Source: a virus (taxonomy: Duplodnaviria; Heunggongvirae; Uroviricota; Caudoviricetes). Taken from it: a stretch of 14,294 nucleotides of DNA. The notes beneath the pieces were generated by a model. That model was not told the DNA's origin and made no database searches. It saw only the letters and a list, made by a program, of their open reading frames with translations. The stretch spans positions 1-14,294 of the IMG/VR virus record IMGVR_UViG_3300028952_000022. The stretch is one strand, 5' to 3'. Below, piece after piece: positions 1 to 14,294 of the stretch (its first letter is position 1; every line of letters starts with the position of its first letter). The position numbers were made by a program, and so were the translations under genes.

Positions 1-1857
1 ATGGCATTTAAACACTATGATGTTGTCAGGGCGGCGTCGCCGTCAGATCTTGCGGAAAAGCTGACACATAAACTGAAAGAGGGCTGGCAGCCGTTTGGTA
101 GTCCGGTGGCCATAACCCCTTATACCCTGATGCAGGCGATTGCAGCAGAAGGTGATGTGGTCGTCAGTGGTGCAACTGAGCCGGAGTGGTACTACGTCAT
201 CGTACTGGCCGGGCAATCCAATGCCATGGCTTACGGTGAAGGGCTTCCGCTTCCGGATTCTTACGATGCGCCCCACCCACGCATTAAGCAACTGGCCCGT
301 CGCAACACAGTGACTCCCGGTGGTAAAGCATGCGCATTTAACGACATCATTCCGGCAGACCACTGCCTGCATGATGTTCAGGATATGAGCGCACTGAATC
401 ATCCGAAGGCAGACCTGAGCAAAGGGCAGTACGGCTGTGTCGGCCAGGGCTTACATATTGCCAAAAAACTGCTTCCGTATATCCCGAATAACGCGGGGAT
501 CCTGCTGGTACCATGCTGTCGTGGTGGTTCGGCATTCACCCAGGGCGCGGAGGGGACATTCAGTGCGGACACGGGGGCCAGCCAGGATTCGGCACGCTGG
601 GGTGTGGGTAAACCGTTATATCAGGACCTGATCGCACGCACCAAAGCGGCATTACAGAAGAACCCGAAAAATGTGTTGCTGGCGGTGTGCTGGATGCAGG
701 GCGAATTTGACATGAGCGCTGCCACCTACGCACAGCAACCGGACCTGTTCACGGCCATGCTGAAGCAGTTCCGTACTGACCTTTCCGGATTTAACGCGCA
801 GTGCCATGGCGGCAGTGCTGCAGTTGTACCGTGGATTTGTGGCGACACGACGTATTACTGGAAAAACACATACGGCACACAGTATGACTCCGTCTACGGC
901 GCGTACAAAAACAGGGAGAGCGACAACGTTTTCTTTGTGCCGTTCATGACCGACGGTAACGGCAACAACACGCCCACCAACTTACCGGCAGAAGACCCGG
1001 ATATTGCTGATGCAGGTTATTACGGCGCGCAATCCCGTAGTAATGGTAATTGGGTATCGTCAAATCGTCCGACACATTTCAGTTCATGGGCGCGCAGGGG
1101 CATTATTTCGGATCGCCTGGCAACCGCTATTCTGAACGCAGTTGGTCGAACCAGCGCCTTCATCAGCGGTACCGCACCGGAGATTAAACCCTCGCCCGGC
1201 GGCGACACGCCATCGGGGCCGTCTGATGGTGACACATCCGTTCGTACAGTCTCCCTGCTGCCGACAGCCGGAGAGGCTGCTGCGCAGGGCTGGACCATCA
1301 CCGGCGGCAGTGTTGCGCTGGAAGATGGTGTGTTTAAGGTTACCAAGCAGAGCAATAAAACCTGGTCCCTGATGCATCCGGTGGATGACGCAGTCTCCCT
1401 GCTGACACGGGGTGGCAGACTGAGCTGTAAGTTTCGACTGTCAGGCGCACTGACCAACAACCAGTTCGGTCTGGGAATTTATCTGTATACCGATGTAGCG
1501 TTACCTGACGTCGTGGCGATGACCGGGACTGGTAACCCGTTCCTGATGTCGTTCTTCACCCAGACCACAGACGGCAAACTGAATCTGATGCATCACAAGA
1601 AAGCCGGAAACACAAAGTTGGGCGAGTTCGGGAATTACAGTAACGACTGGCAGACGCTGGAACTGGTGTTCACCGCCGGCAGTGCCACGGTTACTCCGAA
1701 ACTGAATGGAGTGGCTGGCCCGGCATTCCAGGTCATAAAAGACAGTCTGACACTGGGGCTGAATGCGCTGACGCTGACGGATATTACCAAAAATGCAGCG
1801 TATGGCGTTGAGATAGAAAGTCTGGTGCTGGAGATAAATGCACCGGCATCATCATAA
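1..1857 (+). CDS. nanS-p: Sialate O-acetylesterase, prophage NanS-p type (618 aa from ATG at window position 1; N-terminus may be complete or clipped by the window)
   Basis: Long ORF with the SASA/SGNH-type esterase block 'VIVLAGQSNAMAYGEG'; N-terminal 'MAFKHYDVVRAASPSDLAEKL' resembles the DUF1737-like N-domain of Stx-phage NanS-p proteins. Sits immediately upstream of holin/endolysin, as in Stx-converting and related lambdoid prophages. Homology is from memory. Confidence 0.7.
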   Translation: MAFKHYDVVRAASPSDLAEKLTHKLKEGWQPFGSPVAITPYTLMQAIAAEGDVVVSGATEPEWYYVIVLAGQSNAMAYGEGLPLPDSYDAPHPRIKQLARRNTVTPGGKACAFNDIIPADHCLHDVQDMSALNHPKADLSKGQYGCVGQGLHIAKKLLPYIPNNAGILLVPCCRGGSAFTQGAEGTFSADTGASQDSARWGVGKPLYQDLIARTKAALQKNPKNVLLAVCWMQGEFDMSAATYAQQPDLFTAMLKQFRTDLSGFNAQCHGGSAAVVPWICGDTTYYWKNTYGTQYDSVYGAYKNRESDNVFFVPFMTDGNGNNTPTNLPAEDPDIADAGYYGAQSRSNGNWVSSNRPTHFSSWARRGIISDRLATAILNAVGRTSAFISGTAPEIKPSPGGDTPSGPSDGDTSVRTVSLLPTAGEAAAQGWTITGGSVALEDGVFKVTKQSNKTWSLMHPVDDAVSLLTRGGRLSCKFRLSGALTNNQFGLGIYLYTDVALPDVVAMTGTGNPFLMSFFTQTTDGKLNLMHHKKAGNTKLGEFGNYSNDWQTLELVFTAGSATVTPKLNGVAGPAFQVIKDSLTLGLNALTLTDITKNAAYGVEIESLVLEINAPASS

Positions 1858-1942
1858 AAAGTGAGCCAGTCAAATGGAAGGTATCGTTAAACTCACCGGT
1901 AGTGTCAGTGGGTCGTCTGAGATGCCTGCATGAGTTATCAGA

Positions 1943-1972
1943 GCCATCAGTACTTAACTGGTGGCTTTTTTT
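1943..1972 (+). terminator. Rho-independent terminator candidate between nanS-p and holin
   Basis: 9-bp stem gccatcagt / actggtggc (one G-U wobble), 5-nt loop, then TTTTTTT (1966-1972). Confidence 0.55.
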
Positions 1973-2007
1973 ATTGTTGTCAGCTTCCGGATAACGGGAG
2001 ACGGGGT

Positions 2008-2224
2008 ATGTACCAGATGGAAAAAATCACAACAGGTGTGTCATACACCACGTCAGCGGNNNNNNNNNNNNNNNNNNNNCCTGCAGTTGCTGGACAGGGT
2101 TTCCCCGTCTCAGTGGGCGGCAATAGGCGTGCTGGGGAGTCTGCTGTTTGGGCTGCTGACATATCTGACTAACCTGTATTTCAAAATCAGAGAGGACCGT
2201 CGTAAGGCTGCACGGGGAGAGTAA
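2008..2224 (+). CDS. S: Class II pinholin, S21-like, with dual start (ATG 2008 and ATG 2017); interrupted by a 20-N gap at 2060-2079 that breaks the frame
   Basis: Before the gap: '[17 protein letters not shown]'; after the gap: '[47 protein letters not shown]'. This matches the phage 21 S pinholin pattern (dual Met start, two TMDs, charged C-tail). The N run is 1 nt off a multiple of 3, so it is a placeholder, not a real frameshift. Confidence 0.8.
2060..2079. other. Assembly gap or masked bases (20 N)
   Basis: Run of 20 'n' characters in the sequence. Confidence 1.
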
Positions 2225-2228
2225 TTCA

Positions 2229-2579
2229 ATGACTCAAAACTATGAACTGATTGTGAAAGGGATCCGCAATTTTGAGAATAAAGTTACGGTAACTTTAGCG
2301 TTACGGGACAAAAAAACGCTTTGACGGTGAAATTTTTGACCTGGACATCTCGCTGGACCGTGTTGAAGGTGCCACGCTGGAGTTTTATGAGGCAGCAGCC
2401 AGAAGGAGCATCAGACAGGTCTTCCTGGATGTTGCTGCCGGGTTATGTGAAGGGGATGAGCAGTCGCCGGAAAAGCGCCCCGTAATTTTAGAGGCGCAGA
2501 ATGTATGGATAACCTACAAAGGAAAGCTACCGGGAATAATTACTGGTTCTCTGAAGACTCCTCCGGAATCACAACCTTA
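2229..2579 (+). pseudogene. YdfR/DUF1327-like prophage protein, frameshifted at an A7 homopolymer (2310-2316)
   Basis: ATG 2229 gives 'MTQNYELIVKGIRNFENKVTVTLALRDKKTL*' (stop 2322-2324). Removing one A gives a continuous ~116-aa protein '...ALRDKKRFDGEIFDLDISLDRVEGATLEFYEAAARRSIRQVFLDV...ESQP*' ending at 2579. This resembles the YdfR-type protein found between holin and lysozyme in E. coli cryptic prophages (from memory). Confidence 0.55.
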
Positions 2580-2643
2580 AGTCACTGACCGGAACAGATA
2601 AACCTGTCCGTGGGCAGAAACCGATAAATCCTGATAAATATCC

Positions 2644-3177
2644 ATGAACACCAAAATCAAATACGGCCTGTCGGCTGCCGTTCTGGCGCTGATTGCCGCT
2701 GGTGCGCCTGCGCCTGACATTCTCGACCAGTTTCTGGATGAAAAGGAAGGTAACCACACCACGGCATACCGTGATGGCGCGGGTATCTGGACCATCTGCC
2801 GCGGTGCCATCCTGGTGGATGGCAAACCTGTCGTTCCTGGCATGAAGTTGTCGAAGGAAAAATGCGACCGGGTTAACGCCATTGAGCGTGATAAGGCGCT
2901 GGCATGGGTGGAGAAAAACATCAGAGTGCCATTGAGTGAACCCCAGAAAGCGGGGATCGCGTCATTCTGTCCGTACAACATTGGCCCCGGTAAGTGTTTT
3001 CCGTCGACGTTTTATAAACGAATTAATGCAGGTGATCGCAGGGGAGCGTGTGAGGCGATTCGCTGGTGGATTAAGGACGGTGGCAGGGACTGCCGTATTC
3101 GCTCAAATAACTGTTACGGTCAGGTATCCCGTCGTGACCAGGAGAGCGCGCTGGCGTGCTGGGGAATCGACAGATAA
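2644..3177 (+). CDS. R: SAR-type endolysin (phage lysozyme, 177 aa)
   Basis: N-terminal signal-anchor-release-like hydrophobic stretch 'YGLSAAVLALIAAGAPAP', then a lysozyme-like domain ('TAYRDGAGIWTICRG...'). Position is downstream of the holin and upstream of Rz/Rz1. Confidence 0.85.
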   Translation: MNTKIKYGLSAAVLALIAAGAPAPDILDQFLDEKEGNHTTAYRDGAGIWTICRGAILVDGKPVVPGMKLSKEKCDRVNAIERDKALAWVEKNIRVPLSEPQKAGIASFCPYNIGPGKCFPSTFYKRINAGDRRGACEAIRWWIKDGGRDCRIRSNNCYGQVSRRDQESALACWGIDR

Positions 3178-3266
3178 GCAGAATATTTTGCTAATAAATG
3201 ACGTTGGCCAAGGCGGATGGATAACACGAAATCCTGCGAACTGGCAAAATGTAAGTGAATAAAAGT

Positions 3267-3306
3267 AAAAACCCCGTTTGTTGGCAGCAAGCGGGGTTTT
3301 GTTTTT
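3267..3306 (+). terminator. Rho-independent terminator ~90 nt downstream of R
   Basis: aaaaaCCCCGTTTG-ttggcag-CAAGCGGGGtttt gttttt: 9-bp stem with one wobble, 7-nt loop, T-run 3297-3306. Confidence 0.6.
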
Positions 3307-3469
3307 ATGGCAGTAAGCTATGGGAGGCTGCCTTGATTGATTTTAGCAAACTGATTAGGGAGTTGCGACTCATGATTAGTCAATTACCAAACTGGAAATT
3401 TTTGCTGGTCTGGAGCATCCCTTTTTTATGGGTAGTATCCCAGTTAATTGTGGCAATTAAGGGGTAGCT

Positions 3470-3601
3470 ATGTCAGACAAACTCATAACGCCGGCAAAGG
3501 TCCTGTGTGTGATTGTCGGTATTTCATTTTCACTAATGCTGGTTGCTCTTTTTCTGTCCCTCGCCTGGGTGATGTTGTCTTCGTCGGGGCTGCTGGGGTG
3601 A
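3470..3601 (+). CDS. Hypothetical small membrane peptide (43 aa, single predicted TMD)
   Basis: ATG 3470 preceded by AAGGGG (3459-3464); translation 'MSDKLITPAKVLCVIVGISFSLMLVALFLSLAWVMLSSSGLLG*'. Below the ORF-track size cutoff, found by hand translation. Confidence 0.35.
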   Translation: MSDKLITPAKVLCVIVGISFSLMLVALFLSLAWVMLSSSGLLG

Positions 3602-3720
3602 CAGTGACTGATGACATCAGCAGAGCGCTGGCTTTTGCTATTAAGTGGGTGGCTGTTGGTATTGCTGTGTCTCCGATGCTGTATGGGCTGGCAAAACTGG
3701 TCATTGCGCTGAAATCGTGA
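3598..3720 (+). CDS. Hypothetical small hydrophobic peptide (~40 aa, possible GTG start), paralogous to the 3732-3818 ORF
   Basis: Frame of track ORF 3448-3720; C-terminal part 'DDISRALAFAIKWVAVGIAVSPMLYGLAKLVIALKS*'. Start codon uncertain (GTG 3598, GTG 3604 or later). Confidence 0.2.
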   Translation: MTVTDDISRALAFAIKWVAVGIAVSPMLYGLAKLVIALKS

Positions 3721-3731
3721 ACTTTAAAAAG

Positions 3732-3818
3732 ATGAGTGCTGAACTTATTCGGGCAATGGCATTTGCCATTCGTATTGTGGCCATTGCTGTTCTGGTCTGG
3801 GCAATCCGTTGGTGGTGA
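3732..3818 (+). CDS. Hypothetical small hydrophobic peptide (28 aa) immediately upstream of Rz
   Basis: ATG 3732 to TGA 3816-3818: '[28 protein letters not shown]'. Motif RA(L/M)AFAI(K/R)xVA is shared with the preceding ORF. Weak ribosome-binding site. Confidence 0.25.
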
Positions 3819-3819
3819 T

Positions 3820-4314
3820 ATGAACCGTGTTCTGTGTGTGGTGATTATTGTCCTGCTGGTAGCCTGTGGTGTGCTTAGTCTGGGGCTGAATCATTACCGC
3901 GATAACGCCATCACCTACAAAGCGCAGCGCGATAAAAAAGTCAGTGAGCTGAAACTGGCGAATGCCACTATTACTGACATGCAGCAGCGCCAGCGAGATG
4001 TCGCTGCGCTTGATGCCAGATACACGAAGGAATTAGCCGATGCGAGAGCTGAAAATGAAACTCTGCGCGCTGATGTTGCCGCTGGTCGTAAGCGCCTGCG
4101 GGTCAACGCCACCTGCCCCGGTACCGTGCGTGAAGCCACCGGCACCTCCAGCGTGGATAATGCAACCGGCCCCCGACTGGCAGACACCGCTGAACGGGAT
4201 TATTTCATCCTCAGAGAACGGTTGATGACAATGCAGAAGCAGCTGGAAGGGGCGCAGGAATATATCCGCACTCAGTGCACTAAGCTGGCTTTTTATTATC
4301 CGGAGGATACATGA
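3820..4314 (+). CDS. Rz: Inner-membrane spanin Rz (i-spanin)
   Basis: ATG 3820 with GGTGGTG upstream; '[75 protein letters not shown]...' is close to lambda Rz. N-terminal TMD plus coiled-coil periplasmic domain. Confidence 0.9.
4040..4225 (+). CDS. Rz1: Outer-membrane lipoprotein spanin Rz1 (o-spanin), embedded in the +1 frame of Rz
   Basis: '[61 protein letters not shown]': lipobox LVVSAC, proline-rich, very close to lambda Rz1. Confidence 0.85.
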
Positions 4315-4535
4315 AGAAATTACGGGTAACCGTAGAACCTTTTCAGGGAACAATTCCGTTCCGTATTTTGCAGCGTGGTCGTGTTCTTGTTGAAGGTTCG
4401 TTCAGTGGTAAATGTACGCAATTACACTCCCGGACCTTTCAGGTGAATGCCACGAATGAAGAGCTAACCGTGGAGTGTACGATGAATGCCGCTAAATGCC
4501 GCATGGTATCCGCTGCATTACAGCCAGTGTGTTGA
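4311..4535 (+). CDS. Hypothetical protein (74 aa); start overlaps the Rz stop (ATGA)
   Basis: ORF '[29 protein letters not shown]...'; translational-coupling-type overlap with Rz. No recognisable family. Confidence 0.3.
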
Positions 4536-4733
4536 GCGACCTTATTATCCATGCGCGGTATTGTCGCCGTATTCCTGCATTAACAGAGACCGCAGCCCGA
4601 CAGGGAGACTCCTCTGCGCGAGTGTGCGGGGATAATCAAAAACGATACACACCGGGGTTTACCGCGTTAACGGAGCGCGGCGTTGTCCCCTCATAGTCGC
4701 CTGTCCGGTGCGATGGTGGAAGAAACCGAACGT

Positions 4734-4934
4734 TCATTTCTCGTTATTTGTCATGCTGGCCGGGCGCAGATGCGTTGCATCTGTTGCCAGCCTTCTCCTG
4801 CAGGCTTCAATAACCCACGCTGAAAAGTTACCGGACCCTTTATGCTCAAGGGCGATGTTGATCTGTTCAATTATGTGATTGGGGAAACGGATATTGCGGG
4901 TTGTGGTTCTGCGGGTACGGTTTTTCGATGACAT
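4734..4934 (-). CDS. ylcI: YlcI/DUF3950-family small prophage protein (66 aa)
   Basis: Internal Met start (ATG at 4934 on the minus strand) with AAGGAA 6 nt upstream; 'MSSKNRTRRTTTRNIRFPNHIIEQINIALEHKGSGNFSAWVIEACRRRL...' matches the YlcI-type protein found next to terminase genes in E. coli cryptic prophages such as DLP12 (from memory). Confidence 0.65.
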   Translation of the reverse strand: MSSKNRTRRTTTRNIRFPNHIIEQINIALEHKGSGNFSAWVIEACRRRLATDATHLRPASMTNNEK

Positions 4935-4975
4935 ATTTATTTCCTTTACTGATTGCCATATGACGGGGATTTTAC

Positions 4976-5341
4976 ATGGCTGAGCTTCGTACACTCCAGA
5001 GCAGAATCAAAACACTGAATACCCGACGGGTGAATATTCTGAAGGGTGAACAGCGTCGTGTCAGTGGCAGTGCACGTGTTTCCCTCAAGCGTCATATCTG
5101 GCTCAGGGACGCCGGGCAGTGCCGTCTCTGTGGTCGTGTGGTTGACCTCTGTGACAGTGAACTCGATCACCGAATTGCACTTCAGTTCGGTGGTGGTAAT
5201 GAGGAGACGAATCTCTGGACGCTCTGTACCGAATGCCATCGACAAAAGTCTGCTCGTGAAGCGGCGAGTGGTATGCCGGACCCGACGCTGCCGGAGGTGT
5301 CCGGAGGTAGTGGCAGAGAGGACGACATCATCGGACTGTAA
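4976..5341 (+). CDS. HNH endonuclease (packaging-associated)
   Basis: HNH motif 'DHRIALQFGG...NLWTLCTECHRQKS' with a Cys pair 'CRLCG'. Position directly upstream of TerS is typical of HK97-like cos phages. Confidence 0.85.
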   Translation: MAELRTLQSRIKTLNTRRVNILKGEQRRVSGSARVSLKRHIWLRDAGQCRLCGRVVDLCDSELDHRIALQFGGGNEETNLWTLCTECHRQKSAREAASGMPDPTLPEVSGGSGREDDIIGL

Positions 5342-5430
5342 CCCAACCCGGGGGGGGTATCATCCGGCGTAAAAAACGATCGCTTTGGACACCGCGCCCC
5401 CTCTCACGCAGAGAAAAAATTCCCGTTTCA

Positions 5431-5559
5431 GGGCAGTTAACATGTTAACTGGCTGCCCGGGCATTTTTGCGGTTTTTATCTTTATTATTCAGTTTGTTGT
5501 GCGGAAAAAATGTTAACAGGCTTTTTCAGCAAATGTTAACCAGGCAGCAGTTAACATTT
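5431..5559. promoter_or_regulatory. cos-region-like array of ATGTTAAC / GTTAACAT inverted repeats (candidate terminase or accessory-factor binding sites)
   Basis: Palindrome GGGCAG-TTAACATGTTAA-CTGGCTGCCC at 5431-5458; AATGTTAAC at 5508-5516; perfect 10-bp inverted repeat AAATGTTAAC-n9-GTTAACATTT at 5531-5559. Located between the HNH and TerS genes. Confidence 0.4.
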
Positions 5560-5631
5560 GCGGCATGAGACGCCGGGAAAAATGGGCTGAACCATACCCG
5601 GCTGAGTGCGTTCTGGACCCGGGAGGAGGCT

Positions 5632-6195
5632 GTGCTGACAACGCAAAAACGAAAATTTGCGCTGGCGCTCATGTCCGGGAAAAACAAAACAGCGTCAGCC
5701 ATTGCCGCCGGTTATTCGGCGAAGACCGCCAGGGTTAAAGGCTCGCAGCTGGCAAAAGATCCTGAGGTGCTTGCGTTTATAGCCCGTAAACAATGCGAGA
5801 CGGTGGAGGTGGATGAGGTTCCTGTTTACCGGCAGAAAAAATCAGAGCAGGAGGATAAACCCCGTCGCCGTGAGGCGGCTGCAATACCACAGCCGGACGA
5901 AAACAATCTGGAGATGCCACCGTCCGCGGTGATGTCTCCTGGTATTGAATATATGGAGGATGGTCTTCCCGATCCGGTGAAAGCCATGGGGCGGATCCTG
6001 GTGGAAAACCTCTGCATTGATCCGAAACTGGCACTGGATGCGGCCTGGCGTCTGGCGCAGTTCACGCACCATAAAAAAGGGGATACCGGGAAAAAATCGG
6101 CAAAAGGTGATGCCGCGAAAAAAGCGGCTAACCGTTTTGCGGTGCCACCGCCCCCCCGACTGGTGGTGAATAACGATAATGAGGGCAACGGATGA
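5632..6195 (+). CDS. Terminase small subunit (P27-family type), GTG start
   Basis: GTG 5632 preceded by GGGAGGAGG; N-terminal 'QKRKFALALMSGKNKTASAIAAGYSAKTARVKGSQLAKDPEV' is an HTH-like TerS signature; stop overlaps the TerL start (ATGA at 6192-6195). Confidence 0.8.
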   Translation: MLTTQKRKFALALMSGKNKTASAIAAGYSAKTARVKGSQLAKDPEVLAFIARKQCETVEVDEVPVYRQKKSEQEDKPRRREAAAIPQPDENNLEMPPSAVMSPGIEYMEDGLPDPVKAMGRILVENLCIDPKLALDAAWRLAQFTHHKKGDTGKKSAKGDAAKKAANRFAVPPPPRLVVNNDNEGNG

Positions 6196-7853
6196 TACCT
6201 GTATGGAGCACAGCCTGCCCGGACTGGGCAGAGCGCCTGAAAAAGGGGCTGTCGATTATTCCGGATCCGATTTATCCGGACGAGGCCGCACATGCCCTGG
6301 CGATTTTTAAACAACTGCGGATTGTGGATGCACCTGGTAGCCCTACGTTCGGGGAGTCCTGTGCACCGTGGGTGTTTGACCTGGTGGCGGCCCTGTTTGG
6401 CTCCTACGATGCGCAGACCGGTGTACGCCATATCAAGGAAGTTTTTATCCTTATCCCCAAGAAAAACTCGAAGTCCACGCTGGCCGCGGGGATCATGATG
6501 ACTGCACTGTTACTGAACTGGCGGCAGGCGGCGGGTTACACGATTCTGGCCCCGACTGTGGAGGTGGCGGCCAACGCCTTCAACCCTGCCCGGGATATGG
6601 TACGACGTGACGATGATCTGGATGACCTCTGCCAGGTACAGACCCATATCCGGACCATCACCCACCGAGTGACGGACACCACCCTGAAGGTGGTGGCAGC
6701 CGATCCGAATACGGTGTCCGGTATCAAGTCCGTGGGTACGCTGATTGATGAGTTGTGGCTGTTTGGCAAGCAGTGCAAGGCGGAGGACATGTTACGTGAA
6801 GCCATAGGCGGCCTTGCCTCCCGCCCGGAAGGGTTTGTGGTGTATACGACCACCCAGTCGAATGAACCGCCCGCCGGGGTGTTCAGACAGAAACTGCAGT
6901 ACGCCCGGGATGTGCGCGACGGCAAAATTCATGATCCGCACTTTCTGCCGGTGATATTTGAACACCCTCCTGAAATGGTGGAAAGCGGGGCTAACCTGCT
7001 GATGGAAAACCTCGCCATGGTCAATCCGAATCTCGGCTATTCAGTGGATGAGGCCTTTCTGTACCGGGAGTACCGTAAAGCCCGGGAAGCCGGTGAAGAG
7101 ACATTCCGGGGGTTCATGTCAAAACACGCCAATGTGGAAATTGGTCTTGCCCTGCGCTCTGACCGCTGGGCGGGGGCTGATTTCTGGGAAGAGCAGGGCC
7201 GTTGTATCAGCCTGGACGATATCCTGCGTCGTGCTGATGTGGTGACGGTGGGGATTGACGGCGGAGGGCTGGATGATCTGCTGGGGATGTATGTGATTGG
7301 GCGTGACCGGGAGACCCGCGAATGGCTGGGCTGGGGCCATGCCTGGGCGCATGAAACCGCGGTGGTCCGACGGAAGAGCGAGGCGTCCCGGTTTCAGGAT
7401 CTTGTTGCCTGTGGAGATATGACCATTGTCCGGCGTGTCGGGGATGACACGGCGGAAGTGGCGGAATATGTGCGTCGCATTCATGAGGCTGAGTTACTGG
7501 ACCATATCGGTATTGACCCGTCAGGGGTGGGGCAGATTCTGGATTCACTGGCGGAAGCCGGGATCCCCGACGGAATTGTGGTGGGGATAAGCCAGGGCTG
7601 GAAACTGGGCGGGGCCATTAAAACCACCGAGCGCAAACTGGCTGAAGGGGTGCTGGTGCATGGTGACCAGCCCCTGATGGCCTGGTGTGTCGGCAATGCC
7701 CGGGTGGAGCCTAAAGGTAACGCCATTCTTATCACCAAACAGGCCAGTGGACGGGGAAAAATTGACCCGCTGATGGCGCTGTTCAATGCGGTCTCCCTGA
7801 TGTCCCTTAACCCGGAACCGAAAAAGAAAGAATATGCGGTTTTTTTCATATAA
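6192..7853 (+). CDS. Terminase large subunit (553 aa)
   Basis: Large ORF translationally coupled to TerS. The track translation includes a Walker-A-like segment 'ILIPKKNSKST' and acidic nuclease-domain residues; size and position are typical of Terminase_1-type TerL. Confidence 0.85.
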   Translation: MIPVWSTACPDWAERLKKGLSIIPDPIYPDEAAHALAIFKQLRIVDAPGSPTFGESCAPWVFDLVAALFGSYDAQTGVRHIKEVFILIPKKNSKSTLAAGIMMTALLLNWRQAAGYTILAPTVEVAANAFNPARDMVRRDDDLDDLCQVQTHIRTITHRVTDTTLKVVAADPNTVSGIKSVGTLIDELWLFGKQCKAEDMLREAIGGLASRPEGFVVYTTTQSNEPPAGVFRQKLQYARDVRDGKIHDPHFLPVIFEHPPEMVESGANLLMENLAMVNPNLGYSVDEAFLYREYRKAREAGEETFRGFMSKHANVEIGLALRSDRWAGADFWEEQGRCISLDDILRRADVVTVGIDGGGLDDLLGMYVIGRDRETREWLGWGHAWAHETAVVRRKSEASRFQDLVACGDMTIVRRVGDDTAEVAEYVRRIHEAELLDHIGIDPSGVGQILDSLAEAGIPDGIVVGISQGWKLGGAIKTTERKLAEGVLVHGDQPLMAWCVGNARVEPKGNAILITKQASGRGKIDPLMALFNAVSLMSLNPEPKKKEYAVFFI

Positions 7854-7876
7854 CCCTGTTCACACTGTAACCATCA

Positions 7877-7900
7877 CGAACCGCTCCGGCGGTTTTTTTA
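7877..7900 (+). terminator. Rho-independent terminator candidate after TerL
   Basis: AACCGC-tccg-GCGGTT stem-loop followed by TTTTTATTTT. Confidence 0.45.
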
Positions 7901-7916
7901 TTTTCAGGAGGCTGAT

Positions 7917-8486
7917 GTGACTCTTAAACGGGCCTGTTCCCTGCTGACGGTGAAATCCTTCAGTGAGGATGAACGGGTGATCACCGGGATTGCGTCAACG
8001 CCTTCTCCGGATCGGGATGGTGACATCCTGGAGCCGGAGGGCGCGGAGTTTGGCAGTGCGATCCCGTTTCTCTGGCAGCATGACCATTCCCGCCCGGTGG
8101 GGCAGTGTACGGTGCGCCGGGTCAGCGAAGGGCTGGAAATCACGGCAACACTGGTGAAGCCCGTACCGGATATGCCGTCGCAACTGGCTGCCCGGCTGGA
8201 TGAGGTCTGGGCGGCCATTAAGACCGGGCTGGTCAGGGGGCTGTCCGTGGGCTTCCGTCCCCATGAATACACCTTTCTGGACGGAGGCGGACTGCATTTT
8301 CTGCGCTGGGAACTGATGGAGGTGTCTGCCGTCACCGTGCCCGCGAATGCGGAATGCACCATCCGGACCATTAAATCTTACGACCGCCCGTTTTCTGCCG
8401 CGTCCGGCAACCGGAAACCGGTGGTGAAAATCGCATCTTCTGACCGGAACGCCAACAACACCAACTGCGCGACAGGGAACGAATAA
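7917..8486 (+). CDS. HK97-family prohead protease (peptidase S78/U35), GTG start
   Basis: CAGGAGG RBS 6 nt upstream of GTG 7917; motifs 'FLWQHD' and 'GLSVGF' typical of HK97 gp4-like proteases. The C-terminal ~30 aa ('[30 protein letters not shown]') may be junction-derived. Confidence 0.75.
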   Translation: MTLKRACSLLTVKSFSEDERVITGIASTPSPDRDGDILEPEGAEFGSAIPFLWQHDHSRPVGQCTVRRVSEGLEITATLVKPVPDMPSQLAARLDEVWAAIKTGLVRGLSVGFRPHEYTFLDGGGLHFLRWELMEVSAVTVPANAECTIRTIKSYDRPFSAASGNRKPVVKIASSDRNANNTNCATGNE

Positions 8487-9747
8487 TACCCAAATCGCAA
8501 GCACGGCTTATGTTATGGCTGCGATCGCTGCCCTCGTGGACTCGTCGCCTGACGCACTGAATACGCTGAACGAGCTGGCTGCGGCGTTGGGCAACGACCC
8601 GAATTTTGCGACCACCATGACTAGCGCGCTTGCGGGTAAGCAACCGAAAGATGCCACCCTGACGGCGCTGGCCGGGCTTGCTACTGCGGCAGACAGGTTT
8701 CCGTATTTTACGGGGAATGATGTTGCCAGTCTGGCAACCCTGACAAAAGTTGGGCGGGATATTCTTGCGAAATCGACCGTTGCCGCCGTTATCGAATACC
8801 TCGGTTTACGAGAACTCGGCACAAGCGGGGAGAAAATACCGTTACTCAGTACAGCGAATACCTGGACTAATCGACAAACATTCAGCGGTGGCCTTTCTGG
8901 TGAACTATCCGGCAATGCTTCTACAGCTGCAAAATTAAAAACTGCCAGGAAAATAAGCAATGTGGCTTTTGATGGTTCCTCCGATATCACATTAAAAGCA
9001 AGTCATGTTGGTGCGTTTGCCTTAGGGAAAACAGGAAGCACCGTTGCGAATGATAAAGCAGTTGGATGGAACTGGAGTAGCGGAGCCTATAACGCAACTA
9101 TTAGTGGTGCATCAACGTTAATTATTCATTTTTATATGGGAGAAGGAAGTTGTCCTGCAGCTCAGTTTCGGATTAATTATAAAAATGGCGGTATTTTTTA
9201 TCGTTCAGCCCGTGATGGTTATGGTTTTGAAGCCGACTGGTCCGAATTTTACACCACCACCAGAAAGCCTTCAGCAGGAGATGTTGGTGCACTGCCGTTA
9301 TCTGGTGGTCAACTGAATGGTGCACTGGGTATCGGAACATCCAGTGCTCTTGGCGGTAATTCGATTGTATTGGGTGATAATGACACGGGCTTTAAACAAA
9401 ATGGCGATGGTAATCTGGATGTTTATGCTAATAACGTCCATGTTATGCGCTTTGTCTCCGGAAGCATTCAAAGTAATAAAACCATAAATATTACAGGGCG
9501 TGTTAACCCCTCGGATTACGGTAACTTTGATTCCCGTTATGTGAAAGATGTTCGACTTGGTTCACAGCAATATTATGGAGTGAACAACTGGCAAACATGG
9601 AATTTCCAGTGCCCTTCAGGTCATGTATTGTCTGGTATTAATGTTCAGGATACAGGGTCTAACTCTGCCGATAATATAGCGGGCGTTTATTACAGACCCG
9701 TTCAAAAGTATATAAATGGCACCTGGTATAATGTAGCGAGCGTTTAA
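8428..9747 (+). CDS. stf: Side tail-fibre protein, 5'-truncated (constant part Sc fused to variable part Sv); first ATG at 8515
   Basis: Frame is open from 8428; '[25 protein letters not shown]' is the conserved mid-fibre motif of lambda Stf / Mu S / P2 H type fibres, which normally lies several hundred residues into the protein. The C-terminal end '[19 protein letters not shown]' is a typical fibre tip. No N-terminal fibre domain is present. Confidence 0.8.
8789..8814 (+). repeat. Left crossover site of the invertible segment (gix/pix-like)
   Basis: TTATCGAATACCTCGGTTTACGAGAA lies inside the tail-fibre ORF; it matches the reverse complement of the right site (11870-11895) at 21 of 26 positions. 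Confidence 0.7.
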
Positions 9748-9748
9748 T

Positions 9749-10282
9749 ATGATGCACTTAAAGAACATAAAAGCGGGTAATGCTAAAACACTGGAACAGT
9801 ATGAGTTAACAAAGAAACACGGAGTTATCTGGCTTTACTCTGAGGACGGAAAAAACTGGTATGAGGAAGTGAAAAACTTTCAGCCAGACACCATAAAGAT
9901 TGTTTACGATGAAAATAATATTATTGTTGCCATAACCAAAGATGCCTCCACACTTAACCCTGAAGGTTATAGCGTCGTTGAGATTCCTGATATTACCGCC
10001 AACCGGCGTGCTGACGACTCAGGTAAATGGATGTTTAAAGATGGCGCAGTCATTAAACGTGTATATACCGAAGAAGAGTTGCGCCTACAGACGGAAAACC
10101 AGAAAAAAATATTATTACAGCAGGCCAGAGAAAAAACGCAGTTCTGGCAAACACAGCTTACTTTGGGGATTATCACTGATTCAGACAGACAGCAACTGAT
10201 GAACTGGATGCGATACGTGCAACAGGTTGAGACAACTGATACCTCGGTTCTTCCTGTAACATTCCCGGAACCACCAGAATAA
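9749..10282 (+). CDS. tfa: Tail fibre assembly protein (Tfa) for the currently expressed fibre tip
   Basis: '[41 protein letters not shown]...ITANRRAD...' is Tfa/gpU-like; it starts 2 nt after the fibre stop. Confidence 0.85.
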
Positions 10283-10283
10283 G

Positions 10284-10310
10284 AAAAGGCCCGTACGGGC
10301 CTTAATTTGT
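10284..10310. terminator. Bidirectional terminator between the convergent tfa genes
   Basis: Perfect palindrome AAGGCCCGTACGGGCCTT (10286-10303), with T-rich sequence on both strands after the hairpin. Confidence 0.6.
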
Positions 10311-10312
10311 TG

Positions 10313-10840
10313 TTATTCTGGTTTCTGTGGCCATTCAGGCTTTGCAGTATCCACACGGCTGACCATAACGCTGTAGCGTTCCCATGATTCCAGTCGTGTG
10401 CGTTCCTCATCAGTTGCCATATTCAGTCTGACAGCACGTTCCAGCGGTTGAATCACAGACTCCGCTTCGGAAAGCAAAGCGGCTTTTTGTAACTCTGCCT
10501 GCTGTTGCAGTTCCTGTTTTGTATATTCCCGCTTTACTACTTTACCATCCAGAAACTTCCAGTTTCCCGAGATATCGGCGCGACGGTTGGCTGTTATATT
10601 CGGTAACTCAACAACACTTAACCCGTCAGGGTTAAGTGTTGATACGTCTTTCTCAATACAACGAATAATCCCCTTCTGGTCATAAGCTATTTTTAAAGTA
10701 TCATCCTGAAAGTTTTTTAATTCGTCATACCAGTTTTTACCGTCTTCTGTATATAGCCAGATAACGCCAGCTTTTTTCGTAAGCTGATACTGCTCAATGG
10801 TTTTGGGGTTTCCGGCGGTAATATTTTTCAGATGTTGCAT
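10313..10840 (-). CDS. tfa: Tail fibre assembly protein, alternative copy (Tfa') in the inverted arm
   Basis: '[41 protein letters not shown]...[13 protein letters not shown]...' is paralogous to the plus-strand Tfa; AGGAGA RBS upstream on the minus strand. Confidence 0.85.
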
Positions 10841-10855
10841 ATATTCTCCTGATGG

Positions 10856-11887
10856 CTATGCCTGTTCAACGTTATACCAGTTACCAGAAATGTATTTTTG
10901 TAGTGGTCGTGACACCATCCAGTCATCTCCATCAACCTCACCAATAATTTGCAATCCTGTTGTCACATGACCATTACCTGGTTCGCAAAGTCCTCCGCGA
11001 TATAATGTGTCAGAACGTCTGCCTCCCAGACGCACATTTCTGATAAAAGAACTATTCAGGTAATCATTTAAGTTTGACCCCCAGCACCCACCAAATATAT
11101 TTCCATCGGTGTTATAACGGACGCCACCCGCAATAAGAGCACCCGGTGAAATAAAGGATTTATCGTTCGGGTTAAACTGCCATAAAGCATCATTACCGCC
11201 ATCGCCACGCATATGAATACATGGAACCGGAAATCCATACTGTTCTGTCAGTAAATACCCAAAGCTGACCGCGCCGGGATAGCCCTGTCCATTGCGAATG
11301 GACAAGCCCTTAACTATCGGCACGTAATGACCACCAGGAGTGGGATTCCAGGCAAACTGCGTCTGAACAAAAGGCGCGGTGGCATTATTCAACTGGTCTG
11401 CAAATGCGCCACTTCCATCAGGAATTATTCCCTGATGAATATATGCAACCCGCTTATAAAAATCAGCAGATGCGGGTTGAAGCCCAAATGCCAGTTGTCC
11501 ATTTGAATAGAATAAAAGGACACCGTCGCCGCCCTGTTTAATACCAGTGTCGTTATCTCCGAGAGTAATGGAATTACCGCCCAGTGCGTTATCTGTACCA
11601 AGCGCCAGCCCACCATCAATTTTGGCCCCGTGGCTGACAGATATAGCACCTGTTCTCAGATTTATAGCGAATGGCCTTAATGGGCCGATATCACCGTTTT
11701 CGCCTTGTCCTTCAGCCGTCGGAATGAAATGAAGAAAATCTTCTGAACGACGGAAAATAAGACCGAAGGCATCATTGAAAATTCGCAGCGCATTCACCGT
11801 GCCAATTTTCAGTTCTCCGGTCATTTTATCGCCGGAACGCTGAACGGCGTTACCAGCCTTGTTTACCGTTTCCTGTAAACCGAGGTT
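10856..11887 (-). CDS. Alternative tail-fibre C-terminal variable segment (Sv'), silent in this orientation (no upstream Sc on this strand)
   Basis: Minus-strand frame is open from 11887 (just inside the right crossover site) to the stop at 10856; fibre-tip sequence '...GNSITLGDNDTGIKQGGDG...QKYISGNWYNVEQA' parallels the plus-strand Sv ('[19 protein letters not shown]...[14 protein letters not shown]'). Confidence 0.75.
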   Translation of the reverse strand, partial: NLGLQETVNKAGNAVQRSGDKMTGELKIGTVNALRIFNDAFGLIFRRSEDFLHFIPTAEGQGENGDIGPLRPFAINLRTGAISVSHGAKIDGGLALGTDNALGGNSITLGDNDTGIKQGGDGVLLFYSNGQLAFGLQPASADFYKRVAYIHQGIIPDGSGAFADQLNNATAPFVQTQFAWNPTPGGHYVPIVKGLSIRNGQGYPGAVSFGYLLTEQYGFPVPCIHMRGDGGNDALWQFNPNDKSFISPGALIAGGVRYNTDGNIFGGCWGSNLNDYLNSSFIRNVRLGGRRSDTLYRGGLCEPGNGHVTTGLQIIGEVDGDDWMVSRPLQKYISGNWYNVEQA

Positions 11888-11895
11888 TTAGATAA
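11870..11895 (+). repeat. Right crossover site of the invertible segment (gix-like)
   Basis: Plus strand TTCCTGTAAACCGAGGTTTTAGATAA; its reverse complement TTATCTAAAACCTCGGTTTACAGGAA is, from memory, within 1 nt of the phage Mu gix site. Confidence 0.75.
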
Positions 11896-11949
11896 TGGCG
11901 GTTTCTGGCCTGCATGGCATGATTTGTGCTTTTGGACGGGAGATTCAGC

Positions 11950-12190
11950 GTGCTGATTGGCTATGTAAGGGTATCAACAAATGACCAGAATACAGATCTG
12001 CAACGAAACGCTCTTGTTTGTGCAGGATATGAACAAATATTTGAAGATAAATTAAGCGGAACAAGGACAGGCCGACCTGGATTAAAACGTGCTTTAAAGC
12101 GCCTTCAAAAAGGTGACGCACTGGTTGTCTGAAAACTGGACTGACTGGTTCACTGTATGCGGCATCTTGTCGTGCTGGTGGTGGAAGCCT
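11950..12190 (+). pseudogene. pin: Pin/Gin/Hin-family serine DNA invertase, truncated (N-terminal ~61 aa intact, then in-frame stops and decay)
   Basis: GTG 11950: 'MLIGYVRVSTNDQNTDLQRNALVCAGYEQIFEDKLSGTRTGRPGLKRALKRLQKGDALVV*'. This matches the Pin/Gin N-terminus including the catalytic Ser in 'VSTNDQ', but TGA stops replace the expected W/R codons ('VV*KLD*L...'); the resolvase core and the C-terminal HTH are absent. Confidence 0.8.
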
Positions 12191-12192
12191 AG

Positions 12193-12325
12193 AAAAAGTA
12201 TCGGGTGTTACTGAACCGTGTTGATACATCAACTGCACCTGATATTGAGTGGCCTACGAACCCTGTCAGGGAGTAATCATTGGGATTATGCCGCAGCACG
12301 TCTTAAGCAAGAACGTGCTGCGGTT
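12193..12325 (+). repeat. Direct repeat copy 1: tfa 3'-end fragment ('...[25 protein letters not shown]') plus an 11-bp-stem hairpin (12291-12323)
   Basis: ~130 bp, near-identical to 13245-13378; hairpin CCGCAGCACGT-n11-ACGTGCTGCGG. Confidence 0.7.
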
Positions 12326-12330
12326 GGATG

Positions 12331-12999
12331 CTATTTTTTCCCTGAAGCGGAAAACATTACTACAGTACCTTGAACCTTGGTTTTAACATTCTCGAAATGC
12401 TCTGAGAGTATATGTGTTAAGCCTTCTTCGGAATCTTTTGTGTTTGAAAAGATGCCTTTCTGATTGTAAATGCGCATCAGTTTTTGACCGAAGCTATTGT
12501 GCACAACTCCATCGCCAAGAATTGTGGCTCCGTATAGAGTTCCATCGTCAGTTAAGGCCTGCGCCGCATTGCGTATTACACAGCTTTTTGTAGATATATT
12601 TCCAGGCAGGCAGTGAAGAAGGTAAAACATGGAAATGGAATCAAATTGACCATGTAACGCCGCGGGATAAGGTTCAAAAACATCATGGCTAATTTTATGT
12701 TTAATTTTTGATTCCCCAGCCCTTGTAGATGCCGCGTTCAGGCTAGCTTCGTTCAAATCCATTAAAGATATCAGACTACTCTCAGGTACGTGAGTAAGGT
12801 AAAACCCAGTTCCAACACCAATATCCAGATGGTTGTTACCTACATGTTCCAGAAAGTGTGGAAGAAGGTGTTCCTTTGTAGGACATCCCCATGCAAGCCG
12901 ATTTGATACTCCCAAAACCCACCAGTCATAAAGCTTTAGGGTAAGTGGTGTGTAAATTTTAGCCCCATCATCTGTGTTTTTTTTCATTGATTTCACCAT
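12331..12999 (-). CDS. Class I SAM-dependent methyltransferase (Rossmann fold), substrate unknown; probable true start at ATG 12987 (GGTGA RBS)
   Basis: Motif I 'LDIGVGTGFY' (GxGxG), acidic post-beta2 'LMDLN'; no DPPY/NPPF-type DNA-MTase motif IV seen. Visibly AT-rich relative to neighbouring phage genes. Confidence 0.65.
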   Translation of the reverse strand: MVKSMKKNTDDGAKIYTPLTLKLYDWWVLGVSNRLAWGCPTKEHLLPHFLEHVGNNHLDIGVGTGFYLTHVPESSLISLMDLNEASLNAASTRAGESKIKHKISHDVFEPYPAALHGQFDSISMFYLLHCLPGNISTKSCVIRNAAQALTDDGTLYGATILGDGVVHNSFGQKLMRIYNQKGIFSNTKDSEEGLTHILSEHFENVKTKVQGTVVMFSASGKK

Positions 13000-13055
13000 G
13001 TTATAGTTTTATTTGTGAATTAAATCAATTATGGCGATGAATTACAAGGGGTTAA

Positions 13056-13325
13056 ATGCTGCCGCAGCATAGCGATATTGAAATAGCCTGGTATGCTTCG
13101 ATACAGCAGGAGCCGAATGGCTGGAAGACCGTCACCACACAGTTCTACATCCAGGAATTCAGTGAGTATATTGCGCCACTGCAGGATGCTGTAGATCTGG
13201 AAATCGCAACGGAGGAAGAAAGATCGTTGCTGGAGGCATGGAATAAATATCGGGTATTGTTGAATCGTGTTGATACATCAACTGCACCTGATATTGAGTG
13301 GCCTGCAAATCCTGTCAGGGAGTAA
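13056..13325 (+). CDS. Truncated/chimeric tail fibre assembly protein fragment (89 aa)
   Basis: C-terminal ~50 aa '[53 protein letters not shown]' matches the conserved Tfa C-terminus; the N-terminal 35 aa are unrelated to the Tfa N-domain. AAGGGG RBS before the ATG. Confidence 0.45.
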
Positions 13326-13378
13326 TCATTGGGATTATGCCGCAGACACGTCGTATGCAGGAACGTGCTGCGGTTAGT
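13245..13378 (+). repeat. Direct repeat copy 2 (tfa 3' end plus imperfect hairpin)
   Basis: Near-identical to 12193-12325; includes an identical 39-bp core 'cgtgttgatacatcaactgcacctgatattgagtggcct'. Confidence 0.7.
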
Positions 13379-13439
13379 TTGTGAGCTTTCGATAGTGGTT
13401 GTTATTTTTGCCCTTATTTGTTCCGGAGGCCATGGTTCA

Positions 13440-13610
13440 ATGGTCCGTCTGCCCCCTGTGGTGATGTCAGCAAAATCAGCCACTGCGCGAACCACAATAG
13501 CCCGGGAAGATGCTGAAGATCACCAGGTAAAGCTGTCAGCGCAGAAACTGGAAGAACTGCTCGCATCAATGGTTAAGGATGAGGTTGATCGCAATGATGG
13601 GATTTATTGA
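13440..13610 (+). CDS. Hypothetical small protein (56 aa)
   Basis: ATG 13440 with GGAGG 10 nt upstream: 'MVRLPPVVMSAKSATARTTIAREDAEDHQVKLSAQKLEELLASMVKDEVDRNDGIY*'. The annotated track start at 13329 lies inside the repeat hairpin and is unlikely. Confidence 0.3.
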   Translation: MVRLPPVVMSAKSATARTTIAREDAEDHQVKLSAQKLEELLASMVKDEVDRNDGIY

Positions 13611-13706
13611 CGTCAGCGAGAGCAGAAGGAAGAACTGAATAACCTGAATGATTTACGCTCAATCAGAGCGATGGCGATTAGCGGCAATCACGCTCGATAA
13701 AATTAA

Positions 13707-13729
13707 CCCCGGTGATCATCCGGGGTTTT
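13707..13729. terminator. Terminator hairpin, probably bidirectional, between the convergent small ORF and the Rha gene
   Basis: CCCCGG-tgatcat-CCGGGG followed by TTTT on the plus strand; on the minus strand the Rha gene stop (13737-13739) lies 8 nt upstream. Confidence 0.55.
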
Positions 13730-13736
13730 GCATTCA

Positions 13737-14294
13737 TTAAAATCGCATCAACCTTTCCACCAATTGTTCTTTACGGGCAACGATCCACCCATGTTGCTCC
13801 AGATAAAATTTAAACCGTTCCAGCGTGCATACCATCGCATCGGCGGGGACTTTTTCTGTGAACTCGACCTGACCGTGTTTATCGAAGTGGATCAGTAATG
13901 CGCATCCATTATTTGGGGCGGGGGAGTTTTGTGCTGCAGGAGGACGTTTGTGGAGTTCTTCTTCCATTGCGTTAAATTTTTCAATGTAAGCTTCTTTTAG
14001 TCTGGCTGCTTTTTTGCCAGTAAATCCCATTACGAGGAACATGAAGCCGTCTTTTGTGATCAGGTAGCATCGTGATTCACGTTCTGCGCCGTTGCCAATT
14101 TCGACAGTCTGAACATCGGCCGAAAAGTTGGCTGATGTAAATTCGGGAGAGCAGTCGAGTGTGTCAATCTTAGCTAAAACGTGTTTATGTTGTTTATCGA
14201 AGTAGTCGGCAACAGCTTGAGAGGTGGTAACCAGGCGACCATCTTTGAAAAAGACTTTTGGTGACTCGTTAGAAAAAGTTATAGCTGTATTCAT
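13737..14294 (-). CDS. Phage regulatory protein, Rha family (185 aa); start codon at the window edge
   Basis: 'VTTSQAVADYFDKQHKHVLAKIDTL...TKDGFMFLVMGFTGKKAARLKEAYIEKFNAMEEEL' is the Rha N-terminal domain signature; ATG is the reverse complement of 14292-14294. Confidence 0.7.
   Translation of the reverse strand: MNTAITFSNESPKVFFKDGRLVTTSQAVADYFDKQHKHVLAKIDTLDCSPEFTSANFSADVQTVEIGNGAERESRCYLITKDGFMFLVMGFTGKKAARLKEAYIEKFNAMEEELHKRPPAAQNSPAPNNGCALLIHFDKHGQVEFTEKVPADAMVCTLERFKFYLEQHGWIVARKEQLVERLMRF

Follow-up and report, generated by a model that had tools for sequence, protein, structure and literature searches.

Predicted membrane micro-proteins encoded in a variable slot between the endolysin and spanin genes of a lambdoid prophage

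What occupies the space between the endolysin gene R and the spanin gene Rz of an Escherichia coli lambdoid prophage, and what could it do there? The question arises from the virus record IMGVR_UViG_3300028952_000022 of IMG/VR, whose positions 1 to 14,294 are the late region of such a prophage; this whole stretch of 14,294 nucleotides is hereafter called the window. The stop codon TAA of R lies at 3175-3177 and the ATG of Rz begins at 3820, which leaves an interval of 642 nt at 3178-3819. An earlier note on this DNA had described here an insert of about 640 bp with a strong terminator and three short open reading frames (ORFs) in different frames for hydrophobic peptides. Both the insert and the terminator are borne out, and the quoted ORFs all exist, in three frames; their number is four, since a further one, ORF A, lies 5' of them (Table 1). 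The reading that we favour, tentatively, is that the gap is an accessory slot filled by a terminator-led unit of micro-protein genes, A-D, which are expressed late and whose products are putative modulators of the membrane step of lysis.

Loci for comparison comprised 80 IMG/VR records with an R of at least 95% identity, 80 more with a member of the C/D family, and others found via exact-protein look-up. The statement in the earlier note that Rz normally follows R directly is inapplicable to this R family, because the gap carries an insert in 75 of the 76 loci with R of at least 95% identity and an identifiable Rz. The arrangement A-B-C-D of the window, with its gap of 642 nt, is the most frequent (24 loci). 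It is followed by an A-like gene alone (gap of 297/298 nt, 22 loci), the reversed order C-B (486/487 nt, 18 loci), the antirepressor gene ant with B (978-995 nt, 4 loci), D alone (335/336 nt, 3 loci) and C-B' (478 nt, 2 loci). C-D (438 nt) and A-B (426 nt) were met in one locus each, and in one locus R abuts Rz with a gap of 0 nt. A further variant of the slot, E-C-F-D, adds the families E (MQVKDNNK...) and F (MIKAETT...), and the slot of the viable phage PhiR5_1 holds a 231-aa protein gene with B-C-D. Phages 933W and P13374 carry ant and B; the B gene of 933W is unannotated and lies directly 5' of Rz. B was found at full length in 276 phage records, 933W included. Among 5,426 complete E. coli genomes, 587 hold at least 80% of the exact interval and 2,078 hold part of it. 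To judge by these sequences, the space between R and Rz is an accessory slot of the late lysis operon and is prone to recombination.

The genes A-D are co-oriented and packed as in an operon, with junctions that range from a 4-nt overlap (GTGA) to an 11-nt gap, and they are coupled to Rz. The start of ORF A was set at the TTG at 3333, 5 nt after the Shine-Dalgarno (SD) sequence GGGAGG (3322-3327). The Prokaryotic Genome Annotation Pipeline (PGAP) calls a 70-aa ORF at 3255-3467, but the PHROG match covers only its residues 28-69, the last 42, in a family of 45 aa; this confinement and the SD before an in-frame TTG determined the choice. The ATG of ORF B is located 2 nt past the stop of A and 5 nt after the SD AAGGGG (3459-3464). 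ORF C can start at GTG 3598, which overlaps the stop of B (GTGA) and gives 40 aa, or at GTG 3604, which gives 38 aa and has GGGG 5 nt upstream. ORF D begins 11 nt past the stop of C behind an A-rich sequence with no clear SD. It ends 1 nt before the ATG of Rz, and its last codons (TGG TGG TGA; TGGTGGTGA) form an SD-like sequence for Rz.

By profile score, all four genes belong to PHROG clusters; the individual E values of ORF C are 1.9e-27, 1.7e-24 and 7.3e-17, and the full-length C and D forms from other loci reach 1.4e-42 and 6.8e-24. A, B and C/D represent at least three unrelated families, which assort independently among phages. The earlier note could not assign the peptides to any known family. 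This stands for function, which is annotated for none of them, whereas families do exist: PHROG 6632 (A), 4906 (B) and 1115/4493/3246 (C/D) are sequence clusters labelled 'unknown function' that hold no mechanistic information, and PGAP annotates all four genes as hypothetical proteins in identical loci. A-D are best classed with the small accessory membrane proteins of phage late or lysis operons, already present in databases as hypothetical or of 'unknown function'. A duplicated transmembrane segment of Rz was considered as the origin of ORF B and rejected. Despite a 12-nt match (GTYCTGTGTGTG), B and Rz did not align by BLASTP and aligned poorly as DNA; the small ORFs are no fragments of a spanin gene.

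The coding character of the small genes was examined through the ratio of nonsynonymous to synonymous substitution rates (dN/dS) on unique alleles, with dN/dS recomputed in the two other frames as an off-frame control. Full-length C (20 alleles in 101 copies) has no stops and a dN/dS of 0.14, against 0.92 and 2.24 off frame, and its variable sites are distributed 9/4/18 over the three codon positions. The C core (17 alleles in 128 copies) likewise has no stops, a dN/dS of 0.11 against 1.0 and 4.5, and a distribution of 8/3/17. For B (23 alleles in 115 copies, no stops) the ratio is 0.42 against 0.72 and 1.30, and for the D core (7 alleles in 35 copies, no stops) it is 0.38 against 0.62 and 1.44. 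The A-like gene of the 298-nt slot type (5 alleles in 22 copies) contains stops in one allele and has a dN/dS of 0.17, against about 1 off frame. Alternative hydrophobic ORFs of 33 and 57 aa that overlap C sit in unselected frames. A is almost invariant in E. coli, with two alleles in 28 copies, so that the selection test is powerless within this species. Salmonella, Providencia, Citrobacter, Enterobacter and Klebsiella encode homologues of A of 44-45 aa, each of which starts with TTG or GTG after a strong SD. Across lineages, the dN/dS of A is 0.28-0.65 in frame versus 0.5-1.0 and 1.8-3.9 off frame, and its 44-45 codons are free of stops in E. coli, Enterobacter and Citrobacter alike, with synonymous divergence near saturation. 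The most conserved part of A is the N-terminal IDFSKLIRELR.

A homologue of B was called as translated by ribosome profiling (RIBOseq): the 'novel gene' XECs191 of E. coli O157 Sakai, MMGWLMISDKLITLVKSLCVLVGISFLVMLVAIFFSTAWRVLTLSGLVG (Hücker et al. 2017, PMC5597208). The translatome value in lysogeny broth (LB) was 12.6 reads per kilobase per million mapped reads (RPKM), with a ribosome coverage value (RCV) of 0.43 and a coverage of 0.55; in brain heart infusion (BHI) the RPKM was 1.7 (PMC5597208). A literature search by accession numbers and peptide strings retrieved no paper on the peptides, and a peptide was present only in the supplement of PMC5597208. The patterns of substitution indicate that A-D are almost certainly real genes under purifying selection. 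The earlier note had named a decayed remnant of a larger gene, for example an antirepressor, as the finding that would speak against the small genes. This objection fails, since the ant protein query matches nothing in the A-B-C-D interval, ant is an occupant of the slot in other phages only, and purifying selection maintains the small frames.

Two of the genes, C and D, are related to each other. The earlier note had proposed their paralogy from a shared RA(L/M)AFAI(K/R) core, and the homology is genuine: the copies of the window align by BLASTP with an E of 2e-4, both match phrog_4493 and phrog_3246, and their full-length relatives align over the N-termini with an E of 4e-8. The tandem duplication of a coding unit of about 100 bp, which the note derived from this likeness, did not hold up, and an origin of C and D by duplication in situ is ruled out, because no direct repeat was detected between them and their nucleotide identity is about 55%. 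Since each type also stands alone elsewhere, C and D are best described as old paralogues juxtaposed by recombination.

Full-length C from other loci is 60 aa long (MEKYKRILLRLTMKNGLELKAP... or MEKYKRILLRLTMKNGLELKAPVTDDISRALAFAIKW...), and full-length D, which stands alone in the 335/336-nt slot type, is 50 aa long (VRKYKRFFLRLSIMKGIEVETPASLDLTRAAAFAIRI...). Across database calls, the C gene carries at least six different N-termini. The long C/D forms (for example the interval 157-336 of locus L019; alignment A1) keep two methionines, M1 and M13/14, which are separated by a basic KYKR..LRL stretch, with GAGG 7-11 nt before the second; many database C/D entries begin at this second methionine. 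The pair resembles the dual starts of holins and antiholins, a likeness that we note as a lead only. Several singleton chimeras are also found in databases (P0092, P0013-P0015, P0018, P0022). One of them joins the N-terminal half of a pinholin to the C core at a shared W-x-A-x-G, and several fuse B to C through a frameshift (B::C, 80-83 aa). Errors of sequencing or assembly could account for these chimeras, which may otherwise be genuine recombinants.

The shortness of C and D in the window raises the possibility that the families are real but that these two genes, and possibly the whole array, are leftovers of recombination that have lost their expression or their use. The N-terminal part of about 22 aa of the full-length forms is missing from C and D, C has GTG starts only, D has no SD, and the prophage is degraded. 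The A-B-C-D arrangement is near invariant, as the two alleles of A illustrate, so that its own conservation mostly reflects recent common descent. Forms of the same short length, however, recur elsewhere with proper ATG starts, one of 38 aa (MNAELLRAAAFAIKW...) in more than 50 contigs and another of 28 aa (MSADFIRATAFAIRLV...). C and D also occur together where A-B is absent, the viable PhiR5_1 carries B-C-D, and no copy of C or D contains a stop. We consider it quite improbable that C and D of the window, or the whole array, are mere leftovers.

The small genes are preceded by an intrinsic terminator. Its stem (3268-3300) has 15 pairs and a loop of 3, with arms at 3268-3283 and 3285-3300, and is followed by GTTTTTAT. 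The folding free energy of -22.6 kcal/mol compares with -11.5 +/- 2.9 for shuffled sequences (z -3.9; none of 200 shuffles equalled it). An A run 5' of the stem makes the terminator potentially bidirectional. The first ~85 nt after R are common to all slot types, including the ant type, which then has a different terminator. This conserved leader contains a hypervariable patch at ~3199-3217 (for example GACGTTGGCCAACGCGG, GCGGTTTGCTCACACGG and AAGGCATGGCCACGCGG). A structured RNA or small RNA in the leader was considered and is unsupported: 3178-3267 has no Rfam match, compensatory changes were seen in 0 of 25 predicted pairs in 63 unique leaders, and there was no covariation at the hypervariable patch either.

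Similar hairpins (AAAACCCCG...CGGGGTTTT or a close variant) with an SD precede the first small gene in every case read, with family members from Enterobacter, Citrobacter, Klebsiella and a metagenomic phage. What is portable would thus appear to be a terminator followed by an SD and one or more micro-protein genes. In the cases read outside the window, no promoter-like site lies between the hairpin and the first small gene. The unit is not confined to the present cassette. In Enterobacter, A is flanked on one side by a GH19 endolysin and on the other by a spanin-like pair composed of a 92-aa protein with a transmembrane domain (TMD) and an overlapping lipoprotein with a LIASC lipobox. A of Providencia directly follows a CHAP enzyme, that of Citrobacter lies between the tail genes I and J, and that of Klebsiella is inside the baseplate module. 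One C/D member is located 3' of tail-fibre genes, and two are in a Salmonella prophage remnant (L164) without lysis genes. The genes F, C and B were met 3' of a GH108 endolysin gene, in the company of other holins.

The last of these cassettes (L169-L171, ~2400-4500) encodes holin_8, holin_3_7 and the GH108 endolysin, then F, C and B, and then a 60-aa lipoprotein with an LVGC lipobox (phrog_7528, unknown function); neither Rz nor Rz1 is recognisable there.

The families themselves are narrow. A C/D profile search of 1.84 billion representatives returned only 22 clusters, all of 20-87 aa, and a scan of GTDB species representatives gave no match. Pfam, NCBIfam and PADLOC contained no match for the families, and none of 20 family members matched Pfam holins even at E<=10.

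Hydropathy bears out the expectation of the earlier note that the ORFs encode single-helix membrane-like peptides, and it does so for all of them: every family has a C-terminal uncharged span of 18-33 aa with at most three residues after it. The N-terminal segment comprises 7-36 residues with a net charge of zero or positive. By the positive-inside rule, the peptides are predicted to be tail-anchored with the N-terminus in the cytoplasm (N-in). The AlphaFold2 model of the 60-aa C form contains a helix at residues 3-19, a break at a conserved AP, and a long helix at residues 23-59; the mean predicted local distance difference test (pLDDT) score is 78.9 and exceeds 90 over the second helix. A-D are very probably membrane micro-proteins.

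The expression of the genes has to be deduced from their surroundings. No sigma-70-like promoter site was found on the + strand anywhere in 1800-5000, so that expression should need late antitermination. A second strong terminator lies upstream of the holin gene, and the two terminators bracket the lysis genes in such a way that only antiterminated transcription would pass. Expression of A-D is likely to be restricted to the late phase.

The peptides could alternatively belong to modules resembling type I toxin-antitoxin systems, in which hydrophobic membrane toxins are held in check by antisense RNAs. Their size and hydrophobicity resemble those of Hok, Ldr, TisB and Ibs-type toxins, and one promoter-like site on the - strand (3476 to 3447, 9/12 matches) faces the bidirectional terminator and could yield an RNA antisense to ORF A. 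This single match compares with 3.3 expected by chance, however, and in all arrangements in which B comes after C rather than A its -10 half is missing. No Rfam family was detected in 3178-3819 and no Pfam match to the Hok, Ldr, TisB or Ibs families, both at E<=1. The genes are co-oriented, overlap or lie 1-11 nt apart and are coupled to Rz, unlike stand-alone toxin loci with long 5' untranslated regions, and they have neither a + strand promoter-like site of their own nor a conserved antisense RNA gene. The lack of toxin-family homology, of a known antitoxin RNA and of a conserved antisense promoter, together with the operon packing and Rz coupling, makes the toxin proposal of the earlier note very improbable.

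The two other functions put forward in the earlier note fared differently: modulation of lysis timing appears to be the best fit, and a role as moron or in exclusion stays in serious contention. In the favoured mechanism, RNA polymerase modified by Q would read through the terminator, and A-D would be transcribed late together with the holin, endolysin and spanin genes. The peptides would insert into the inner membrane in the N-in orientation and tune the membrane step of lysis, that is, the triggering of the holin or pinholin, the collapse of the membrane potential and the release of the signal-anchor-release (SAR) endolysin. Such tuning would be comparable to that by antiholins, Mu releasin and Lcc6 of phage LambdaSo. 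We favour this role because occupancy of the slot is nearly universal (75 of 76 loci with this SAR endolysin have at least one such gene, or ant and B, directly 5' of Rz), because the families recur after four unrelated types of endolysin, and because Lcc6, releasin and antiholins provide precedents. Lysis modulation by A-D is nevertheless only a possible function, and the reading as a whole is correspondingly provisional.

Mu releasin and antiholins set the time of endolysin activation, and an antiholin is as a rule an isoform or near relative of its holin. Like releasin gp25 (DUF2730) and the antiholins lambda S107, S21-71 and P1 LydB, A-D are encoded with lysis genes and are predicted to be membrane-associated. 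They share with holins and antiholins the position in the lysis cassette, a hydrophobic helix and the lack of a promoter of their own, which points to late co-expression; homology to these proteins was not detected. For A-D there was no match to DUF2730 or to Pfam families of holins (E<=1). Unlike antiholins, the small-gene families occur with three different holin sets, and the only hint of holin kinship is the likeness of the C core to TMD2 of the pinholin. This likeness was considered as mimicry of pinholin TMD2 and set aside as a lead: the BLASTP alignment (E 0.006) extends over 16 residues only, Pfam holins are not matched, the family also occurs with non-pinholin cassettes, and the singleton chimera P0092 exists.

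Releasin of phage Mu is a small single-TMD precedent for a protein that is required for, or tunes, lysis by a pinholin and SAR endolysin (PMC9239132). Another precedent is Lcc6 of the Shewanella phage LambdaSo, a 65-aa single-TMD protein that is required for pinholin/SAR-endolysin lysis, is non-toxic alone and acts at the holin step (bioRxiv 10.1101/2024.01.23.576932). Lcc6 shows that lysis can require small factors besides holin, endolysin and spanin. Like Lcc6, A-D are very small proteins with a single predicted inner-membrane helix, from a lambdoid phage with a pinholin and SAR endolysin. Compared by description only, Lcc6 has an N-terminal TMD and a cytoplasmic tail of 43 aa, whereas A-D are anchored C-terminally; the gene of Lcc6 is located far from the lysis genes, whereas A-D are inside the lysis cassette.

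Lambdoid morons, such as lambda bor and lom and the superinfection-exclusion membrane protein gp15 of HK97, are extra genes between late genes, bounded by terminators, and often encode small membrane proteins. Classical morons are expressed from the prophage, under a promoter of their own and with a terminator at the 3' side. A-D could be cargo of this kind, that is, portable genes for small membrane proteins among the late genes, unrelated to lysis and perhaps with low-level expression from the prophage. They could be of benefit, for example, through exclusion of superinfecting phages, through disturbance of a membrane protein or defence system of the host, or in the competition among co-resident prophages. 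As with morons, A-D are present in some close relatives and absent from others, as the eight slot states among the 76 loci, one of them without an insert, show, and the slot also houses ant. Members of these families are also located within tail and baseplate modules and 3' of tail-fibre genes (L176, L181, L180); in Citrobacter (L176) a terminator lies on either side of the gene, for which there is also a weak promoter-like site. Degraded prophages retain such genes, namely that of the window and the Salmonella remnant L164, from which the lysis genes are gone. The RIBOseq signal of XECs191 was seen without induction, and N-termini and helix cores are shuffled extensively, in a manner that recalls conflict-driven genes.

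Several observations speak against such cargo. The terminator of A-D is upstream of the genes, not 3' of them as in classical morons, and none precedes Rz, whose translation is coupled to that of the genes. The stretch from the terminator to ORF A lacks a promoter-like site in the window, as does its counterpart in L174, L180 and L181; the combination of an own sigma-70 promoter and a downstream terminator is lacking in the window and partly present only in L176. PADLOC gave no match, the families are enriched directly after four different types of endolysin, and the low RIBOseq level fits spontaneous induction in a subpopulation. On balance, we regard moron-type cargo as somewhat unlikely.

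The proposal of lysis modulation has its own difficulties. The families A and C/D are not restricted to lysis cassettes, as their members in tail and baseplate modules and behind tail-fibre genes demonstrate. The families in general are not bound to one type of holin or endolysin, which makes a specific protein partner within the cassette less likely, and they have no homology to holins, antiholins, releasin (DUF2730) or any other Pfam or NCBIfam family. The slot can also hold an antirepressor or a 231-aa protein and is therefore not function-specific. C and D of the window are short at the N-terminus, with weak or non-ATG starts. The RIBOseq signal of XECs191 is low and comes from uninduced cultures. 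Finally, the prophage looks defective: the YdfR gene is frameshifted, and in a 99.7% identical locus (L178, compared with 4300-14294 of the window), which matches in two pieces, the genes for the major capsid protein, tape-measure protein and C40 peptidase and the tail genes are annotated as truncated. The copies of A-D in the window may therefore be idle.

The genes that flank the slot are those of a lambdoid lysis cassette (Table 1). The R protein begins with MNTKIKYGLSAAVLALIAAGAPAP, a hydrophobic, SAR-like segment, and Rz contains an embedded lipoprotein gene, Rz1, as is the case for spanins. The holin gene of the window is interrupted by a masked run of N whose length breaks the frame; the identical locus L002 encodes an intact 71-aa holin, which PGAP names class II holin. 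A 74-aa ORF (4311-4535) overlaps the stop of Rz (ATGA). It matches only positions 100-172 of the 291 of phrog_2571, the middle of the profile alone, and is therefore probably a fragment of a larger gene. Matches to Rfam IS009 were found at 13079-13282, 12154-12233 and 10341-10530 (best 112.5 bits, below the gathering score of 117; some partial), and a partial match to Rfam CssrB at 12260-12322; all are within the tail-fibre region.

Table 1 Features of the lysis region and of the R-Rz interval in the window
Feature	Positions	Strand	Remarks
SASA-type esterase gene	ends 1857		
Second strong terminator	1940-1968		12-pair stem and T run; just 5' of the holin gene
Class II (S21-type) holin gene	2008-2224	+	20-N masked run at 2060-2079
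YdfR-family (DUF1327) gene	2229-2485		split into two ORFs; between holin and endolysin; PGAP 'frameshifted' in identical locus
Endolysin R, 177-aa lysozyme	2644-3177	+	PF00959, E 1.3e-23; phrog_7 endolysin
Conserved leader after the R stop	3178-3267	+	alignments of 63 unique leaders
Intrinsic terminator, hairpin and T run	3268-3307	+	seems to head a portable hairpin-SD-small gene unit
ORF A, 44 aa, (M)IDFSKLIRELRLMISQLPNWKFLLVWSIPFLWVVSQLIVAIKG	3333-3467	+	TTG start; phrog_6632, E 1.3e-12
ORF B, 43 aa, MSDKLITPAKVLCVIVGISFSLMLVALFLSLAWVMLSSSGLLG	3470-3601	+	ATG start; phrog_4906, E 4.5e-21
ORF C, ...TDDISRALAFAIKWVAVGIAVSPMLYGLAKLVIALKS	3598-3720	+	phrog_3246, 1115, 4493, E 1.9e-27 to 7.3e-17
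ORF D, 28 aa	3732-3818	+	ATG start; phrog_4493, E 3.8e-6; phrog_3246, E 9.2e-5
Rz (i-spanin), 164 aa	3820-4314	+	PF03245, E 4.4e-51; phrog_13
Rz1 (o-spanin lipoprotein), inside Rz	4040-4225	+	PF06085, E 1.7e-21

Lysis timing determines the burst size of a phage, and in Shiga toxin (Stx) phages it also determines when the toxin is released. If the micro-proteins tune the triggering of the holin, they would form a cheap, very common and overlooked regulatory layer in a well-studied phage module; if they are membrane-targeted morons instead, they would be candidate factors of exclusion or of competition between prophages. Either way, they are well-supported conserved bacterial micro-proteins of 28-60 aa that automated annotation handles inconsistently. 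Although not surprising in kind, they are common and open to test, and they have been overlooked in very well-studied phages, Stx phages among them.

A broader version of the favoured reading can be put forward as a speculation that we consider improbable. Enterobacterial temperate phages may carry a combinatorially shuffled toolkit of hairpin-led, tail-anchored micro-proteins that constitutes a fourth functional class of lysis-cassette component, with at least five families (A, B, C/D, E and F) and interchangeable N-terminal heads and helix cores. The toolkit would set the timing of lysis, or would disrupt or coordinate the lysis that co-resident prophages bring about, for example through co-assembly with pinholin TMD2 or through dual-start isoforms from M1 and M13. 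If this were true, Stx phages such as 933W would hold an unannotated regulator of lysis and hence of toxin release.

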